Positions 3,336 through 35,597 of a stretch of 47,553 bases of DNA are shown piece after piece. Location of the stretch: IMG/VR virus record IMGVR_UViG_2734482568_000006; one strand, given 5' to 3'. The position numbers and the translations under genes are program-made. The DNA comes from a virus (Duplodnaviria; Heunggongvirae; Uroviricota; Caudoviricetes). The notes beneath the pieces were generated by a model. It was not told where the DNA came from and did not search any database. It worked only from the letters and a program-made list of their open reading frames with translations. Position 1 is the first letter of the stretch. Each line of letters begins with the position of its first letter.

Positions 3336-5597
3336 ATGAACGTTATAAAACTGGCTATCGGCTCAGGCATATTATTGCTCAGCTGCGGTGCTTACTCACA
3401 ATCCATCAGTGAAAAAACTAATTCCGACAAAAAAGGAGCGGCAGAATTCAGTCCGCTCAGCGTTTCTGTCGGGAAGACGACCAGTGAGCAGGAAGCTCTC
3501 GAGAAAACAGGCGCGACCAGTTCCCGGACAACGGACAAAAACCTGCAATCACTTGACGCAACAGTGCGTAGTATGCCTGGTACTTATACTCAAATAGATC
3601 CTGGTCAGGGAGCAATCAGTGTGAATATTCGAGGCATGAGCGGATTTGGTCGTGTAAACACTATGGTCGATGGTATTACCCAGAGTTTTTACGGAACCTC
3701 TACCTCCGGAACAACGACGCATGGTTCAACTAACAATATGGCTGGCGTACTTATAGATCCTAACTTACTGGTAGCAGTTGATGTTACACGCGGTGACAGC
3801 AGTGGCTCTGAAGGGATCAACGCCCTTGCCGGTAGTGCAAATATGCGTACTATTGGCGTTGACGATGTAATATTTAACGGTAATACATATGGCCTTCGTT
3901 CACGTTTCTCTGTCGGTAGTAATGGGCTGGGACGCAGCGGAATGATCGCCCTTGGTGGAAAAAGCGACGCTTTTACGGATACGGGAAGCATTGGCGTTAT
4001 GGCTGCTGTGAGCGGCAGTTCTGTGTACTCTAATTTCTCAAATGGTTCTGGAATTAACAGCAAAGAGTTTGGTTATGATAAATATATGAAGCAGAACCCC
4101 AAATCCCAACTGTATAAAATGGATATCAGACCAGACGAATTTAACAGCTTCGAACTTTCCGCTCGAACCTATGAAAATAAATTTACACGTCGTGATATAA
4201 CCAGTGACGACTATTACATTAAATATCATTACACCCCTTTTTCTGAATTAATTGACTTTAACGTAACGGCCAGTACCAGTCGCGGTAATCAAAAGTATCG
4301 TGATGGCTCGCTGTATACTTTCTACAAAACCTCAGCGCAAAATCGTTCTGACGCGCTGGATATCAACAATACCAGCCGGTTCACTGTCGCGGACAATGAC
4401 CTGGAGTTTATGCTGGGCAGCAAACTGATGCGTACCCGCTATGACCGGACCATTCACTCAGCGGCGGGCGACCCGAAAGCGAATCAGGAATCGATCGAGA
4501 ACAATCCGTTCGCACCCTCCGGCCAGCAGGATATTTCAGCGCTGTATACCGGGCTGAAGGTTACGCGCGGCATCTGGGAGGCAGATTTCAATCTCAACTA
4601 CACACGTAACAGGATCACAGGGTACAAGCCCGCCTGCGATTCACGCGTTATCTGCGTGCCACAGGGTAGCTACGATATTGACGATAAAGAGGGTGGCTTC
4701 AACCCTTCAGTTCAGCTTTCTGCTCAGGTAACACCATGGCTTCAGCCGTTCATTGGCTACAGCAAATCCATGCGCGCCCCGAACATCCAGGAGATGTTCT
4801 TCTCTAATTCAGGAGGCGCATCCATGAACCCATTCCTGAAGCCTGAACGTGCAGAAACCTGGCAGGCGGGTTTTAACATTGATACCAGAGATTTACTGGT
4901 CGAACAGGATGCCCTGCGCTTTAAGGCTCTGGCGTACCGCAGCAGGATCCAGAACTACATCTACAGCGAGTCTTATCTGGTTTGTTCTGGAGGTCGTAAA
5001 TGCAGTATGCCTGAGGTGATTGGCAATGACTGGGAGGGCATTAGCGATGAATACAGCGACAATATGTACATCTACGTTAACTCGGCAAGCGACGTTATCG
5101 CAAAGGGCTTCGAACTGGAGATGGATTATGATGCAGGTTTTGCTTTTGGCCGACTCTCTTTCAGCCAGCAGCAAACAGACCAGCCAACCTCCATCGCCAG
5201 CACCTACTTTGGCGCAGGGGATATGACCGAACTGCCCAGAAAATACATGACGCTGGATACTGGTGTTCGCTTCTTCGATAACGCGTTGACCCTGGGCACT
5301 ATCATAAAATACACAGGCAAGGCTCGTCGCCTGTCGCCTGATTTTGAGCAGGACGAACATACCGGCGCAATAATCAAACAGGATTTGCCGCAGATCCCAA
5401 CGATTATCGATCTCTATGGTACTTACGAGTACAACCGCAACCTAACACTGAAACTTTCGGTACAAAACCTGATGAACAGAGATTATTCGGAGGCGCTGAA
5501 TAAGCTCAACATGATGCCAGGTCTTGGTGACGAGACCCACCCAGCCAATTCCGCGCGTGGCAGAACATGGATATTTGGCGGGGACATTCGTTTCTGA
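3336..5597 (+). CDS. TonB-dependent outer-membrane receptor
   Basis: 753 aa with signal peptide, plug-like N-terminal region, long beta-barrel-like body and terminal aromatic residue (..GGDIRF); adjacent to the TonB paralog and ChaN-like gene. Confidence 0.85.
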   Translation: MNVIKLAIGSGILLLSCGAYSQSISEKTNSDKKGAAEFSPLSVSVGKTTSEQEALEKTGATSSRTTDKNLQSLDATVRSMPGTYTQIDPGQGAISVNIRGMSGFGRVNTMVDGITQSFYGTSTSGTTTHGSTNNMAGVLIDPNLLVAVDVTRGDSSGSEGINALAGSANMRTIGVDDVIFNGNTYGLRSRFSVGSNGLGRSGMIALGGKSDAFTDTGSIGVMAAVSGSSVYSNFSNGSGINSKEFGYDKYMKQNPKSQLYKMDIRPDEFNSFELSARTYENKFTRRDITSDDYYIKYHYTPFSELIDFNVTASTSRGNQKYRDGSLYTFYKTSAQNRSDALDINNTSRFTVADNDLEFMLGSKLMRTRYDRTIHSAAGDPKANQESIENNPFAPSGQQDISALYTGLKVTRGIWEADFNLNYTRNRITGYKPACDSRVICVPQGSYDIDDKEGGFNPSVQLSAQVTPWLQPFIGYSKSMRAPNIQEMFFSNSGGASMNPFLKPERAETWQAGFNIDTRDLLVEQDALRFKALAYRSRIQNYIYSESYLVCSGGRKCSMPEVIGNDWEGISDEYSDNMYIYVNSASDVIAKGFELEMDYDAGFAFGRLSFSQQQTDQPTSIASTYFGAGDMTELPRKYMTLDTGVRFFDNALTLGTIIKYTGKARRLSPDFEQDEHTGAIIKQDLPQIPTIIDLYGTYEYNRNLTLKLSVQNLMNRDYSEALNKLNMMPGLGDETHPANSARGRTWIFGGDIRF

Positions 5598-29509: not shown

Positions 29510-29589
29510 GGTCAGTGTACGCTTAACTGGTAAAGTCGGTGCCTGCCTCCGGGTGGATCATGTATGCGGGTTCGACCCCCGCCACTGAC
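29510..29589 (+). ncRNA. tRNA-like structured element (T-arm plus 7-bp acceptor-type stem; not a canonical cloverleaf by eye)
   Basis: gtcagtg at 29510-29516 pairs with cactgac at 29582-29588; gcggg-ttcgacc-cccgc at 29565-29581 forms a T-arm-like hairpin with a TTCGA loop. It is antisense to the phage late genes, in the F-G intergenic gap. Confidence 0.3.
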
Positions 29590-29591
29590 CG

Positions 29592-30923
29592 TTAATCAAT
29601 TTGTCCTTCCAGCACCTCAAGCATTCCGCCCCGGATATCCGATTTCAGCTTATCCATATTGATAACCCGGTAAGCATTCACAATCACATCCAGTTTGTCG
29701 GGCTGACGTTTCAGACTGTACGGTGCATTAACGGCAATCTGCACACTGCCATCCTGATTTTCCACGATATACATCAGATTGTTGTGCCGTTTGTCCCACA
29801 GTACCGCTTTTGGCCTTGCCAGCATTGCCGGTAAGCGCCCGAAGTCCTCCGGCGTCAGAGCGATGCCGTCATTCTGATGTTTCACACTGTCCGCATGGAG
29901 CACATTTTTACCGCTCATCGCCAGCAGGCGGGCCGGTGGCGTTCCCGTCCGGCTTTCCACTGCCTGCGCAATGCTTTCAGTCATAAAGCCCAGCGTGCGG
30001 ATATCGTTACCACCTCGCCGGGTCTGCATGATGTTTTTTGCCCAGATGCGGAACGCCAGCTGCCGCTCCGGGCTGTTGTTCATCTCCTGAACCACCATTT
30101 CCCGTAACGCCGGGCTTTTCACCTCGATCAGTTTGCGGATCAGCGCCTGGTCTGTGCCGAACGCTGCCGAGCCGGGGTTATATGACCAGCCCACATCCGG
30201 TGTCATGGTTCTGGCGCCATCTGAATATGTGGTCACCGGCATTTCTCTGACTTCTCCGGTCTGTTTATCCACGCCAGCCTCAACATTGCGGGTGGAGAGA
30301 TGATCCTCACCGGATGAAACGGATAACCCCATTGCATCCAGACGGGCCTGAGACAATGGCCGCACACGGCAGCGGCAGTTCCAGCCATTGGGCGGGTAGT
30401 GTGTTTTCCAGAACGGATCGTCATAGCGGAATACCAGACCGTTAAGGGCGGAATGCGACGGGCGGGTACGGCTGTCCATGACCGCCACATACTGCCAGAA
30501 CGGATGCGTGTCCGTGTTGTTCATCATCTGCGTGTAACGCCCGGCATTGTAAGCCACACGGGTGTTCACGTTGTAAATCAGCGCCAGACGACGGGGACTG
30601 CCCTGCTGCACTTCTTCCGCGTTACCGTCGCTGTCCACCACAATCTGCTTTCCCCACCATCCCAGCTTTTGCAGGCGTGGCGTCAGTGTGCGGATAAATT
30701 CTTTCTGTGAAATCCCCTCATCAATGGCCCGCTGCACTTCGGCCTGTAATGTGGTTACCACATCCAGCCGTGCCGTTTTTGCTGCCGTGAATGAGCGGGC
30801 ATGAACATCCGCGTCTGTTTCGAACCAGTTCCAGCTGATATGCGCCCCTTTGGCGCGGAAGTATGCCACCGTCTCTTTTGAGGGAAGCGTGGCGGCATAA
30901 CCTAAATCAATCCCCTGAGCCAT
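29592..30923 (-). CDS. Head morphogenesis protein (Mu F-like)
   Basis: 443 aa directly downstream of the portal gene. Confidence 0.8.
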   Translation of the reverse strand: MAQGIDLGYAATLPSKETVAYFRAKGAHISWNWFETDADVHARSFTAAKTARLDVVTTLQAEVQRAIDEGISQKEFIRTLTPRLQKLGWWGKQIVVDSDGNAEEVQQGSPRRLALIYNVNTRVAYNAGRYTQMMNNTDTHPFWQYVAVMDSRTRPSHSALNGLVFRYDDPFWKTHYPPNGWNCRCRVRPLSQARLDAMGLSVSSGEDHLSTRNVEAGVDKQTGEVREMPVTTYSDGARTMTPDVGWSYNPGSAAFGTDQALIRKLIEVKSPALREMVVQEMNNSPERQLAFRIWAKNIMQTRRGGNDIRTLGFMTESIAQAVESRTGTPPARLLAMSGKNVLHADSVKHQNDGIALTPEDFGRLPAMLARPKAVLWDKRHNNLMYIVENQDGSVQIAVNAPYSLKRQPDKLDVIVNAYRVINMDKLKSDIRGGMLEVLEGQID

Positions 30924-32496
30924 CCAGCATCCCCTTCATTTCCGCAGCAAACATGGCATCACTGAGCAGCGTCATCAGGCGGGAATCATCCATTTCACGG
31001 TAAAGGGCAGGCAGGTCTGCCAGTGCCTCCGCCAGCCCCCGCGTTCTGATGACATCAATGACCGGCTCCAGCACCGGATCGATGGCCTCCTGTAAGCGGC
31101 GGGCAGGCACCGCGTCCCCCATGTCGTCCAGTTCATCACGCGGCGTGTTTTTCGCTTCCGGCAGTCGGGCTGAAAGCGCCGTCTGTTCTGTCTTTTCCTG
31201 TTTTTCCGGTAGCGTTTCCCTGTCAGGCATGGCCGGTTCATTACTGCTCTGACGGACACGGAATATGGCTTCACCGGGCGTGGGCTGTGGAATACCGGTC
31301 TGATCCCGTACCCAGGGATCAGGAATATCCATCCCCGCACTGAGTTGCATCACCGCACTGGCTATTTTGGTGATATCCCCCGGTTCTTTGGTCTGGAAAC
31401 AGATACGCGGCAGGCGACGGATATCAATGGCGTGGGCGGTGTTCAGGGCATACAGCGGATACACCAGATCGCGGTTCAGGGTTGCAGCCAGCTGGCGTAA
31501 ATCAGAATCCCTGATTTCCCGGCGCACCTCGTTATGCACCTCACCCAGCGAGCGCGCGCCTTTGTCTCCGGCTTCTGTGGTCAGCGTGCCGCCGAGTATT
31601 GCTTTGGAGATGGAACGCTCACCCCACGAAATCATGGTTTCAAACGGATCGGCCTGACCGTTCGCTGCCGCCTGAAACTCCAGCGACATCCCGGCCGGGA
31701 TGATCCCGCCTGTACGTCGCCCGATATCCATCACCGCCCGCATCAGGGCACTTTTCTGCTCCGGTGTTGCCCCGGACGGGTATTTCCCGACCTTCATTGG
31801 CAGGCCGTACACCTCCAGAAATTCCGCCAGATCGCGCACGGAATAGTTTTTGAAAATGAACGGCCAGATAAGCGTTCTGACAAGCCCCGTCGCACCACCG
31901 TAGCCGGTGCGTGAACGCGACTGATGCACTATCCAGCCAAAGGGCTGAAACGCCACCCCGGCATGGCTGCCGTCACGCAGCCGCAGTTCGCTCAAATCAT
32001 CCGGGTTAAGGCAGAAATGCCCGCTGTCACGCCAGCGGATGGCGCGGATGATGTGCATTTTACCGAGCATCCCGTGCTCAATTTCCATGCAGGAATAGCC
32101 CTTCAGGATGGCATCCGTGGCGTCAAACAGCATGGCATCAAACCAGTCTGCGGAATGCAGATATTCGTCGAGCATTTCCGCGTCCTTTTTCTCATTCGCG
32201 CTGGCGTTCGGTGGCGGCTCAATACTCCATGGCACCCCCTGAATGGCAAGACGTCGCTTGCCCAGCTCCGCAAAAAGGTGGGTGTCCTTTTCTTCAATAT
32301 CAGCGGCCAGATCGGACTGGGCAATCAGATCGCCACGTTCAGCCCCGCGAAGGCACTGCGCCGCCCGGTTCGGGGTGATACCCGAAGCCGGATGTTCAAT
32401 ATAACGGCTGGCAATCTGCGGAATATCCAGCGCGGCACTCTGCATCTCCGGGTCAAAGGAGAAAGGTTTTCCGTCAGTATCAATGATGCGTCCCAC
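30907..32496 (-). CDS. Portal protein (Mu gp29/H-like)
   Basis: 529 aa directly downstream of the terminase large subunit gene. Confidence 0.8.
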   Translation of the reverse strand: MGRIIDTDGKPFSFDPEMQSAALDIPQIASRYIEHPASGITPNRAAQCLRGAERGDLIAQSDLAADIEEKDTHLFAELGKRRLAIQGVPWSIEPPPNASANEKKDAEMLDEYLHSADWFDAMLFDATDAILKGYSCMEIEHGMLGKMHIIRAIRWRDSGHFCLNPDDLSELRLRDGSHAGVAFQPFGWIVHQSRSRTGYGGATGLVRTLIWPFIFKNYSVRDLAEFLEVYGLPMKVGKYPSGATPEQKSALMRAVMDIGRRTGGIIPAGMSLEFQAAANGQADPFETMISWGERSISKAILGGTLTTEAGDKGARSLGEVHNEVRREIRDSDLRQLAATLNRDLVYPLYALNTAHAIDIRRLPRICFQTKEPGDITKIASAVMQLSAGMDIPDPWVRDQTGIPQPTPGEAIFRVRQSSNEPAMPDRETLPEKQEKTEQTALSARLPEAKNTPRDELDDMGDAVPARRLQEAIDPVLEPVIDVIRTRGLAEALADLPALYREMDDSRLMTLLSDAMFAAEMKGMLDGSGD

Positions 32497-34163
32497 TACC
32501 AGCCCCCCCGATCAAATTCATGATATGCCTCATCGTCATCACGATAACCGCCCTCCATTGCCCGCGACCGCTCCTGTAGCGCCTGACAGGCTGATTCATC
32601 CAGGATGAAGCCCTCCATGTATGACGCCCGGTTTGCCATACAGAGCGCCACGGCAAAATCACCATGGCGGCGGGCGTTCGCAGCCGTTGCGTTCTGGTCC
32701 TTCGTGCGCCCCTTGTCGATTTGCGGGATACCATTCACTACCTTCACATGGCGCAAATCATCAAGCGTGGTCTGATGGCGGGCGACGAGGATATTCTGAT
32801 CTTCAAACTCGGCTTTCAGTTTTGGCATCCACTCGCCGTACCACTTCGGCGACAACATCACGCAGTCGATGATGTCCGGGCCAAAGGCCAGCAGTGCGGC
32901 CTCTGCCAGATAGCCGCCGTTACCGGTGGCGTCGAACGCCGCACCGACCAGCGCCGGAACGCGGGTCAGGATGTACATCATCACCTGTTCCTGCTGGGCA
33001 TACGGCAGGTTGCGCAGCTCCACGCGAAACACCTCGCGCTTTGCCAGGGATTCGGTGATTTCCAGCAGCACAAAGCAGGACAGGTCACCGGTGCGGGCAA
33101 AGTCTTCCCCGAAGCTGAAGCGGGAACGGGGATTTAATTTCTCTAAAAGCGGTTTTAAATGTTCTTCACACCAGGTTAAAACTTCCGATTCACGCAGCCA
33201 TGCGGCACGGCTGATGAAGTTGTCCGGGGCTTCAAACGTCAGAATCGGGATGTCGCGGATCATCGCCATTTCAATAAGCGCGTGGGGGATATAGGCACCG
33301 CCGGATTTTTTCGGGATACAGCCGTATTCCTCGTCGGCATCCTCACGGGTCGGGGCGTTTTTGTAGAGATCATCACGCCATTTCTGCTCGCTTTCCGGTG
33401 ACCATTCCTGATCGGTGACGTAACAGATACGACGGTACAGCCCGTCCGCAATGGCATCATCCAGGGTTATGCGGTGGACGCTGTAATCCTTGCGCCCCTC
33501 GCGGGCTTCCTGAATGTACTGATTAAACAGATTATCGACGCCGTTATGCGTGGAGATAATACGCACGCGCGCGCCCCACATAGTGAGCGCCATTGCCGCC
33601 TTGAGAAGCTCATCCAGTGACTCGTGGAACGCGGCTTCATCAATCACCACATCCCCCTGAAGGCCGCGCAGGTTTGACGGACGGGAAGACAATGCCTGAA
33701 TTTTGAATCCACTGTTCGGAAAGCGGATCATGTAGGTCAAAATTTCTTCTTTTTTATCCCGATCCCAGAATGTCTGCTCATACACATCAGCATCTGCCAG
33801 CTGGTTAAAGGCACGGGAGAACAGCGCGCAGGCAGAAATATATTCCAGCGCCATCTCCTGCTTTGATCCCACATAAAACACATTGCGGCCACCACGACGC
33901 TTCGGTTTTGCAGCAGTAATGACGTTACGCCCGGCTTCCGCCCAGGTAAGACCGGTGCGGCGGGATTTCTCCGCGATGCAGACCTGACTTTCATCTGCAA
34001 ACCAGCGGGCCTGATAATCCAGAAACACCGGCATATCACCGGGCAAATCAAGGCTGTCCGGCACATCCACGCCCAGCAGGGCTTTTTCACCTGACAGATC
34101 AATTTTGCGGGGAGGCGTCATTTGCATCAGTGAAGGCGACGTTTCTCTGGCTTTGTTCATCAT
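32496..34163 (-). CDS. Terminase large subunit (Mu gp28-like)
   Basis: 555 aa with ATPase-like N-terminal and nuclease-like C-terminal halves; upstream of portal. Confidence 0.85.
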   Translation of the reverse strand: MMNKARETSPSLMQMTPPRKIDLSGEKALLGVDVPDSLDLPGDMPVFLDYQARWFADESQVCIAEKSRRTGLTWAEAGRNVITAAKPKRRGGRNVFYVGSKQEMALEYISACALFSRAFNQLADADVYEQTFWDRDKKEEILTYMIRFPNSGFKIQALSSRPSNLRGLQGDVVIDEAAFHESLDELLKAAMALTMWGARVRIISTHNGVDNLFNQYIQEAREGRKDYSVHRITLDDAIADGLYRRICYVTDQEWSPESEQKWRDDLYKNAPTREDADEEYGCIPKKSGGAYIPHALIEMAMIRDIPILTFEAPDNFISRAAWLRESEVLTWCEEHLKPLLEKLNPRSRFSFGEDFARTGDLSCFVLLEITESLAKREVFRVELRNLPYAQQEQVMMYILTRVPALVGAAFDATGNGGYLAEAALLAFGPDIIDCVMLSPKWYGEWMPKLKAEFEDQNILVARHQTTLDDLRHVKVVNGIPQIDKGRTKDQNATAANARRHGDFAVALCMANRASYMEGFILDESACQALQERSRAMEGGYRDDDEAYHEFDRGGW

Positions 34164-34408
34164 GCTTTACCTGTCAGAATGCTTTTGATTCGGGACTCAA
34201 GCTCTTCAGTCATCACGTCCACGCCGCTCAACTCATCAGTGGCAGCCTCTGCCAGCAGCGAATGCAGTTGTTCCAGGGATATTTCCCCGGCAATGCTGAG
34301 TTCAGTCAACTCACGACATACCTTTATGGTTTCAGGAGGTAACTGTGTTGCAAGACTGAATGCTTTCTGATGGGCACTGCTCATCAGTGAGCGGTTATCT
34401 GTTGCCAT
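34160..34408 (-). CDS. Small protein (82 aa) sharing the C-terminal tail of the upstream gp27-like protein
   Basis: C-terminus ATDELSGVDVMTEELESRIKSILTGKA parallels VTDELRGVDGMSEQIEFRIRQMLLGKA at the end of 34419-35000; its stop overlaps the terminase large subunit start (ATGA). Confidence 0.45.
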   Translation of the reverse strand: MATDNRSLMSSAHQKAFSLATQLPPETIKVCRELTELSIAGEISLEQLHSLLAEAATDELSGVDVMTEELESRIKSILTGKA

Positions 34409-34418
34409 GATTCACCTC

Positions 34419-35000
34419 CTACGCCTTACCCAGCAGCATCTGCCTGATACGGAATTCGATCTGCTCGCTCATGCCATCCACGCCGCGCAACTCATCGGTG
34501 ACCGCATTCGCCATCTCTTCAGCAAATGCGGCCCGGATTTCTTTTTCACGCTTAATGCTGCGCTCGGCGGCACTTTCTGCACGCTGTGCCGACAGGAGGA
34601 TGTCCTTAATAAGGCGCATATCCACATCGCTGTCGCTGTTCAGGGATTCGGTGGCGGCACGCAGACGGCGGTACATCAGGGCACGGGACATCTCCAGAAT
34701 CAGTGCCGTGGTTTCACCGGTCGGCTTATCCCCCAGTTCGGCCATCATGGCTTTTGTCTGCTCGCGTAAATCACGCAGATTACGGGCAATCAGCTCATTA
34801 CGGGAGGCTTCCCGGCTGATGGCCGCCGGTGAGAGCTGCTGCTCTTCCGGCAGACCTGCTTCACGGATCAGACGGTTGATTTCCTCGCGGATCTGGACCT
34901 GCGTCAGACGTTTTTCACGCAGCATTTCCAGCAGCGGCTTACGGATGCTGTCGGGGAGCAAATCCACCTTGCGTACACGGCCACGCGCTGGCTTATCCAT
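34419..35000 (-). CDS. Terminase small-subunit candidate (Mu gp27 position)
   Basis: 193 aa, helical, basic N-terminus; position immediately upstream of the terminase large subunit region. Confidence 0.5.
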   Translation of the reverse strand: MDKPARGRVRKVDLLPDSIRKPLLEMLREKRLTQVQIREEINRLIREAGLPEEQQLSPAAISREASRNELIARNLRDLREQTKAMMAELGDKPTGETTALILEMSRALMYRRLRAATESLNSDSDVDMRLIKDILLSAQRAESAAERSIKREKEIRAAFAEEMANAVTDELRGVDGMSEQIEFRIRQMLLGKA

Positions 35001-35002
35001 CG

Positions 35003-35293
35003 TTACCCCCTTGCGCGTGGTTTCTTCACACCCGGAACGGTGGCGCGGCCTTCCGCCACATCCTGACCCCGGCCGGTCAGTTCAGCGATGAAATAACCGT
35101 TAACAAGCGTGCGCTTACGCACCAGTCCCTGCTCGGCAAGCCAGGCAATGTGGGTATGAACGGTGTCGCGGGACACGCGGTGACCGTAATCATCCAGGCA
35201 GTCCTGAAGCACGGATTCGCCCAGTTCGCCGTTGTAATCCGCCAGCGACCGCAGAATGACAAGACGCTGATCTTCAGTAATGAAATCACTCAT
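35003..35293 (-). CDS. Hypothetical protein, possible winged-helix DNA-binding (Mu gp26 position)
   Basis: 96 aa, basic C-terminus; coupled to the downstream gp27-like gene. Confidence 0.4.
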   Translation of the reverse strand: MSDFITEDQRLVILRSLADYNGELGESVLQDCLDDYGHRVSRDTVHTHIAWLAEQGLVRKRTLVNGYFIAELTGRGQDVAEGRATVPGVKKPRARG

Positions 35294-35597
35294 TGTGTTT
35301 TTTCCTTACAGCCTGCTCCAGCAGCAGTTCGTTCTGATGGGAGACGGATTTCAGGGTGGCATTGGTGGCCTTAAGCTCACCGCGCAGGGTGGTGATTTCG
35401 ATATTGAGTCTGTTCACCTCCTGCTGCGTGGGCAGGCCGGAAATCCGGCTCTCCACCCGCTCAACCCGGTCGGAGAGTTTTTCAAAGGCCTCGCGGGGGA
35501 CAAAGGTTTTGCGCATCAGCGCCATGAAGATCCCCCCGGCTGTGGCCGTTGCCGACAGGATCGGCACGACATAATCTTTAACGATGCTGACCCACAT
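35286..35597 (-). CDS. Membrane protein at the Mu gp25 position (releasin/holin-like lysis protein candidate)
   Basis: N-terminal TM segment (VVPILSATATAGGIFMALM) then coiled coil; lies within the lysis cassette. Confidence 0.45.
   Translation of the reverse strand: MWVSIVKDYVVPILSATATAGGIFMALMRKTFVPREAFEKLSDRVERVESRISGLPTQQEVNRLNIEITTLRGELKATNATLKSVSHQNELLLEQAVRKKHNE

Follow-up and report, generated by a model that had tools for sequence, protein, structure and literature searches.

The gp27-TerL slot of a Mu-like prophage

In this study, we analysed a small open reading frame (ORF) that lies between the two terminase genes of a Mu-like phage. The window, i.e., the whole stretch of 47,553 nucleotides (nt) under analysis (IMG/VR record IMGVR_UViG_2734482568_000006), carries an Escherichia coli Mu-like prophage that looks complete and whose late genes are on the minus strand. 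The late run contains, in this order, lysozyme, the spanin genes, a TraR/DksA-like gene, a DUF2730 (gp25-like) gene, a gp26-like gene, gp27, the ORF of 82 amino acids (aa) studied here, the large terminase TerL and the portal (30907..32496, minus strand). The 193-aa gp27 (34419..35000, minus strand) had been taken for a gp27-like small terminase (TerS) in a preliminary description of this DNA, and this is borne out by Pfam family PF11985 (E=3.1e-33), by phrog_426, ‘terminase small subunit’ (E=1.8e-54), and by 56% identity to Mu gp27, which RefSeq labels terminase small subunit. TerL (554-555 aa; 32496..34163, minus strand) matches phrog_2 (E=5e-43 for the 555-aa form) and is 72% identical to Mu gp28. 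Pfam-A and NCBIfam gave no match for TerL at E<=0.1, despite the clear PHROG terminase matches, and in RefSeq the protein is found as ‘hypothetical protein’ only.

The 82-aa ORF occupies 34160..34408 on the minus strand, in agreement with the position and sequence reported for it before, and PGAP labels it hypothetical protein. It has a translation signal of its own: a near-consensus Shine-Dalgarno (SD) sequence, AGGAGGTG (34413..34420, minus strand; read from the sequence), overlaps the TAG stop of gp27 and is located 4 nt upstream of the ATG. The same layout of stop, SD and ATG is seen in Salmonella (TGAGGTGGCTATG) and in the E. coli loci that are designated types C and D below. The small ORF is read in the +1 frame with respect to gp27, which ruled out a read-through fusion of the two. 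A scan of 33900-35400 for promoter-like sites was negative. At its other end, the TGA stop of the small ORF overlaps the TerL ATG, as proposed previously (minus strand GCA TGA TGA AC; overlap GCA TGA TG, 34158..34163), and this junction is organised like the gp27-TerL junction of phages without the small gene. Two in-frame ATGs are present at the TerL start. Because the first one reads TTG in several haplotypes (GCT TGA TG), the second, which overlaps the stop of the small ORF, is the TerL start.

The 82-aa protein ends in a copy of a gp27 tail. In the preliminary description its C-terminus was said to match the last 27 residues of gp27, and the pairwise alignment confirmed this with 15/27 identical positions. 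By BLASTP, residues 52-82 of the protein (LAEAATDELSGVDVMTEELESRIKSILTGKA; 34163..34255, minus strand), hereafter the captured tail, align without gaps to residues 163-193 of gp27 (MANAVTDELRGVDGMSEQIEFRIRQMLLGKA; 34422..34514, minus strand), with 18/31 identical and 24/31 positive positions (E=3e-10). Moreover, the phrog_30922 profile, which represents the family of the 82-aa protein, matches gp27 residues 162-193 (E=6e-8). Taken together, the two E-values rule out a chance similarity of two tails. The authentic gp27 tail comprises many alignment columns that are invariant in its family. The captured tail keeps 11 of the 14 invariant columns, including all of those in the terminal helix (E, L, E, I, L, G, K and A), and the conserved face of this helix is retained in the 82-aa protein as E68, L70, E71, I74, L78 and G80-K81-A82.

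The remainder of the protein (residues 1-51; 34256..34408, minus strand) is an N-terminal domain with three predicted helices and homology to a 65-aa ORF of Salmonella. Over its full length, the 82-aa protein matches phrog_30922 (residues 2-82 against profile positions 2-82, E=6.9e-52); Pfam, NCBIfam and PADLOC gave no meaningful matches, and PF11985 was not matched at E<=0.1. In an AlphaFold2 (AF2) model based on the family alignment (mean predicted local distance difference test score, pLDDT, 72), helices at residues 5-20, 25-39 and 45-60 are followed by a low-pLDDT linker (60-65) and a terminal helix (68-79). The AF2 model of gp27, which at pLDDT 53 is usable for secondary structure only, shows long helices at 58-89, 95-120 and 128-171 in place of the three short ones, then a break (172-178) and a helix at 179-189. 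A Foldseek search of the 82-aa model against the PDB returned nothing below E=2.9, and the gp27 profile had no significant match among PDB sequences. The profile of the N-terminal domain showed no similarity to the gp27 family (hhalign E=0.31). With the tail included, hhalign reached 96% probability to gp27, driven by the tail; the alignment is confined to this segment, which rules out a kinship of the two whole proteins. Thus, the protein shares with Mu gp27 the motif ..TDEL.G.D.M.E.LE.RI...L.GKA in its last 31 residues and a stop whose overlap with the TerL start is that of canonical gp27-TerL junctions. In contrast to Mu gp27, it has neither the N-terminal DNA-binding (helix-turn-helix-like) region (no PF11985 match, profile E=0.31) nor the long central helices of the oligomerisation core, and its tail is altered at family-invariant positions and under relaxed constraint. 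As these N-terminal and core features were looked for and are missing, the 82-aa protein is not a small terminase.

Cassette arrangements and the X family

Among 5426 complete E. coli genomes, 25 carry the 82-aa gene at 90-100% identity, and 206 harbor the same phage lineage with gp27 abutting TerL and no extra gene. Examples of carriers are E. coli 102651 and TOE17, in which a 381-bp query across the gene is matched at 100%. In Mu, D108, SfMu and the other sequenced Mu-like phages, as in all further records of the phage collection, the gene is absent, which answers the question of its presence in other Mu-like genomes that was raised by the preliminary description. A tblastn search of 50,697 phage records returned only gp27 tails, located in two Shiga toxin (Stx) phage records with an inserted Mu-like phage. 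An exhaustive phmmer search of 1.8 billion representatives recovered the E. coli family itself, a 67-aa variant and two long repetitive proteins only. IMG/VR matches to residues 34-81 (L097-L099) were rejected as chance, since they lie inside an unrelated 492-aa ORF on high-GC contigs.

Four arrangements of the region between gp27 and TerL were distinguished. In type A (L001, L021-29), gp27 ends in ..QLESRIKGILLGKA, its stop overlaps the TerL start without an extra gene, and TerL begins with MNNAEELSPLL.. Type B is that of the window, with a gp27 ending in ..QIEFRIRQMLLGKA, the 82-aa ORF and a TerL beginning with MNKARETSPSL.. Type C (L005-L010, metagenomic) has the gp27 tail of type B, followed by a 67-aa ORF (P0012), a 120-bp spacer and an unrelated TerL N-terminus (MSKRTGEEKIK..). 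Type D (L015 and L020, and probably E. coli CI5) combines the B gp27 tail with the C-type TerL N-terminus, and its small gene is deleted except for the first 11 nt. What is retained, ATGGCAACAGA, makes up a mini-ORF of nine codons (MATDWFSYE) which continues into the TerL start (L015 3593-3622; L020 2487-2516; probably E. coli CI5, NZ_CP011018.1 ~4294312-4294462). At the sequence level, this relic shows that the small gene can be lost. The four types converge, near-identical, at PRKIDL of TerL (CCCCGCAAAATTGATCTG), and on the gp27 side A departs from B, C and D from about codon 180. From these limits, the variable cassette is delineated as the gp27 terminal helix (codons ~180-193), the slot and the first ~17 codons of TerL. 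Between types, gp27 and TerL are 96-97% identical at the protein level.

The ~17 variable N-terminal codons of TerL (34113..34163, minus strand) come with the captured tail, and their ratio of nonsynonymous to synonymous polymorphism (pN/pS) is 0.57. Across Mu-like phages, the first ~15-22 TerL residues before PRKIDL are hypervariable (pN/pS 0.4-0.6, versus 0.07-0.08 for the rest). The gp27 C-termini (L001-L089) occur in two flavours, namely ..ELRG.DGMSE.LE.RI...LLGKA in Mu, Escherichia and Salmonella and ..AGLTAETAA.IK.QILGIA in more distant relatives, with hydrophobic-x-x-I-x-x-x-[IL]LG-x-A as the pattern common to both. In distant Mu-like phages, other unrelated small ORFs are located in the gp27-TerL slot (L071-L073, L076 ~3561-3790; L081, L083, L089 ~3446-3720), among them a 63-68-aa ORF (MGIKKPTPPKILQYFKYLHLPDRLQ..) and 50-55-aa hydrophobic, membrane-like ORFs. 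The slot gives the impression of a general hot spot for insertions.

We use X as the name of the small-ORF family between gp27 and TerL, of which phrog_30922 is the E. coli form. In Salmonella Mu-like prophages the slot contains a 65-aa ORF, MQQKYDWYALLS.AHEQAF...CR.AVEK.IASG...VKKV, which matches residues 4-46 of the 82-aa protein (BLASTP E=4e-7). Its SD directly follows the gp27 stop and its own stop overlaps the TerL ATG. A search with the X profile recovered >25 Salmonella clusters (1e-16 to 1e-27) plus the E. coli forms, and nothing outside Escherichia and Salmonella. P0012, the 67-aa ORF of E. coli, is homologous to the 82-aa protein over ~55 residues and has a different C-terminus. Accordingly, the 65-67-aa X ORFs resemble the 82-aa gene in their N-terminal three-helix region, in their slot and in an SD after the gp27 stop, and the Salmonella forms also in the overlap of their stop with the TerL ATG. 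The gp27-like tail is missing from all of them; they end in ..VKKV or ..RRGKT, and the 82-aa form alone in the X family carries the tail, as 31 extra residues. For Salmonella X, pN/pS is 0.39 at pS 0.36 (five haplotypes), compared with 0.07-0.08 for gp27 and the TerL core. Therefore, X is, by its substitution pattern, a real but fast-evolving accessory protein.

Origin of the captured tail

The 93 nt that encode the captured tail share 77% identity with the gp27 tail of type A, but 67% with the tail of the neighbouring gp27. The block formed by the tail and the TerL N-terminus is colinear with the A-type block of gp27 tail and TerL (~76% nt identity over 98% of the length, 206 genomes), the sequence flanking the block is highly similar between the types, and no intermediates were found. 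The junction GGTAAAGC(A/C)TGATGAA has the form common to canonical gp27-TerL junctions (L001, L038, L047). The comparison of the two parts with their respective relatives shows the 82-aa gene to be an in-frame recombination chimera, in which an X N-domain is joined to a captured, diverged gp27 tail; on the same sequence evidence, it is a product of recombination rather than a designed regulator. In the simplest history, a single illegitimate in-frame crossover would have taken place in the variable terS/terL cassette. The left parent would have contained gp27 and an X-type small ORF (65-67 aa, three helices) and contributed the sequence up to about X codon 51-55. The right parent would have been an X-less phage with a gp27 stop overlapping the TerL start, joined from about gp27 codon 163. 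By such an event, gp27 residues ~163-193 came to follow X residues 1-~51, and the tail-stop/ATG junction was kept together with the first ~17 TerL codons of this parent.

A donor gp27 with the signature of the X tail (DVMTEELE) was not found with a degenerate DNA pattern in IMG/VR or in a set of one genome per species, where the search returned only known B-type contigs plus chance matches. Since no gp27 with this signature was found, the changes of the captured tail at gp27-invariant positions probably arose after capture.

The preliminary description had also considered a partial duplication. This holds in so far as the tail copies a gp27 tail, and fails in so far as it is not a tandem copy of the neighbour's tail (67% nt identity) and goes back to another allele (77% to A-type). 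A local tandem duplication, in which the resident gp27 had its 3' end copied on the spot, with a de novo origin or decay as the source of the 50 N-terminal residues, would account for two tail-coding segments in direct orientation, 259 bp apart. We consider this history highly improbable: the tail is closer to the A-type allele than to its neighbour, tail-less homologues of the N-domain exist in Salmonella and in E. coli C-type loci, and the comparison of the N-domain with the gp27 profile was empty.

A query with the junction was found at three places in E. coli JE86-ST05 (NZ_AP022815.1; L102) and at two in JE86-ST02. At the one place examined in JE86-ST05, lysozyme and TerL are annotated as frameshifted.

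Selection and possible function

Selection was assessed by counting segregating sites in 13 distinct B-type haplotypes. The true gp27 tail has 12 synonymous and 0 nonsynonymous sites (ratio 0.00), the captured tail 4 and 6 (omega ~0.47) and the N-terminal part of X 11 and 20 (ratio 0.56). For the whole X gene the counts are 15 and 26, which corresponds to an omega of ~0.54 (binomial p=0.046 versus neutrality). In the same haplotypes, pN/pS is 0.01 for gp27 and 0.08 for the TerL core. The 82-aa ORF is intact in 13/13 haplotypes, and a few metagenomic variants have frameshifts or in-frame deletions at the fusion point (in-frame deletions in P0003 and P0004). The existence of the A-type without the gene (206 versus 25 B genomes) and the retention of merely the first 11 nt in the D-type show, as far as genome comparison goes, that the gene is dispensable in relatives. 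By the site counts, it is also weakly constrained.

What could such a protein do? In lambda and P22, the TerS C-termini bind the N-terminal region of TerL (review PMC9611059). By analogy, we infer that the gp27 tail is the TerL-docking element in Mu-like phages, because of this precedent, the conservation of the tail across the family and its inheritance together with the TerL N-terminus as one cassette. Even distant members show strong conservation of the tail (..ILGIA/..LLGKA). Similar to the variable cassette described here, the lambda gpNu1 and P22 gp3 systems have a flexible TerS C-terminal segment that binds the TerL N-terminal region and a gene order that adjoins the two interacting ends. 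The Mu-type proteins have no sequence relationship to these systems, and their interaction is presumed by analogy. A literature search on Mu gp27 terminase biochemistry yielded nothing relevant in the collection searched. In Salmonella, one type of TerL N-terminus (MSD[DE]QKRLVALT.P) occurs with several variants of the gp27 terminal helix. Without strict allele specificity, gp27 and the 82-aa protein should therefore both fit the same TerL site.

On balance, we favour the reading that the 82-aa protein is an accessory protein which the phage can do without and whose captured helix probably occupies the site of the TerS tail on TerL, where it would act as a weak monovalent competitor or placeholder. 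The gene would be transcribed with the late head operon and translated from its own strong SD, with its termination coupled to TerL initiation. In the product, a flexible linker would connect a small helical domain to a C-terminal amphipathic helix of the TerS type with the conserved face. By analogy with lambda and P22, this helix would most likely bind at the gp27-tail site on TerL. There, the protein would be a monovalent, low-avidity competitor of, or placeholder for, the oligomeric gp27, and packaging would be affected modestly at most. A competition with terminase assembly, or its modulation, as suggested in the preliminary description, is structurally plausible, with the conserved helix residues placed behind a flexible linker.

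Several observations weigh against this reading. The captured tail is altered at positions that are invariant in gp27 (V167->A, G176->V and S178->T) and at a nearly invariant one (R172->S), and the natural variants G62S and L70P (the latter in P0006) affect further invariant or near-invariant positions. Taken alone, the omega of the captured tail (~0.47) is not significantly below neutral (p=0.20), and its constraint differs sharply from that of the true tail (Fisher p=0.003), a pattern that is equally in line with a decaying relic and with a modulator. In addition, the AF2 model of gp27 is poor (pLDDT 53), and docking of the gp27 tail on TerL in Mu-like phages is proposed by analogy.

The same observations lead to an alternative that is nearly as probable, i.e., that the captured tail is a pure recombination scar. 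Here, the tail copy would have no function at the protein level and would be kept for the TerL initiation region in its last codons (..GGT AAA GCN TGA TG) and for translational coupling by an open frame up to this stop. Selection on the gene, if any, would then concern the X N-domain or the expression of TerL alone. A scar fits the selection data almost as well as the favoured reading does. It would explain why the junction GGTAAAGCNTGATGA is conserved whichever ORF it closes, why the tail evolves indistinguishably from neutral and far more loosely than the true tail, why gp27-invariant positions are substituted and variants such as L70P and G62S occur, and why in-frame deletions cluster at the fusion point (metagenomic P0003 and P0004); likewise, tail-less X genes exist and X is deleted outright in related phages. 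However, all invariant residues of the terminal helix are still present after ~23% nt divergence from the nearest gp27 tail, and the omega of the tail does not exceed the value of the X N-domain, a region conserved between genera. The frame is also intact in every B-type haplotype, and although the TerL initiation region needs ~20 nt, 93 nt are still recognisable.

A third terminase subunit was considered as well. In type B, gp27 bears the helix of the C/D cassette (IEFRIRQML), TerL has an A-like N-terminus and the cognate A-like helix is found on X, so that X could be an adaptor that bridges or licenses gp27 and TerL and is required for packaging. The arrangement is suggestive in that the A-like helix adjoins the A-like TerL N-terminus, yet sits on X, that lambda and P22 pair the TerS C-terminus with the TerL N-terminus, and that X has a strong SD and is made directly ahead of TerL. 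Nevertheless, we regard an adaptor as very unlikely, given that the Salmonella pairing is not strict (one TerL N-terminus with several helix variants), that the B gp27 keeps the conserved helix face with zero nonsynonymous change, and that the X tail is weakly constrained.

It is tempting to speculate that the captured tail is functional as a natural ‘tail-only’ TerS mimic docking on TerL, although we hold this to be doubtful. As a placeholder, it might mask the TerS site on new TerL until the oligomeric gp27 on pac DNA displaces it. As an interference factor, it might act against co-resident A-type Mu-like prophages, whose gp27 tail the X tail resembles more than that of its own phage. If true, this would be a self-encoded terminase modulator that arose by domain capture, which is undescribed among the known terminase-targeting proteins. 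Of these, TerI (Listeria prophage), Ppi (Staphylococcus aureus pathogenicity island, SaPI) and RppA (phage-inducible chromosomal island, PICI) bind TerS, and Gpi of the PICI-like element PLE targets TerL (bioRxiv 10.1101/2025.02.27.640495). Like them, the 82-aa protein is small and could, by analogy, act on terminase assembly by subunit contact. Unlike it, they come from competitors (satellites, or a prophage gene expressed in lysogeny) and are not known as mimics of a TerS tail, whereas the 82-aa gene belongs to the late head operon of the phage itself, where it separates terS from terL.

In the product of the 82-aa gene, a natural construct, only the last 31 residues of a gp27-type TerS are displayed, attached to an unrelated scaffold and presumably made in step with TerL. 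Its main value might be that of a natural reagent for mapping the Mu-type TerS-TerL interface. The four cassette arrangements (no gene, X with tail, X without tail, X deleted) occur in nearly isogenic phages and bear on the tail as a docking element, on the allele specificity of tail and TerL and on interference by a monovalent tail. If the tail is inert, the locus would still be a clean, datable case of mosaic recombination that made a chimeric ORF inside an essential operon.

Two minor observations concern annotation and assembly. In an identical prophage, the RefSeq/PGAP annotation includes a ‘tRNA-OTHER’ that lies on the opposite strand, in between the MuF-like and the virion-morphogenesis genes (L002 10883-10970, equivalent to ~29511-29598 of the window); ARAGORN and Rfam found nothing across the window, including this site. 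Furthermore, in P0016 (291 aa, Logan contig) a gp26-like winged-helix protein is fused to gp27, which is probably due to a lost stop codon or a sequencing error in one assembly.

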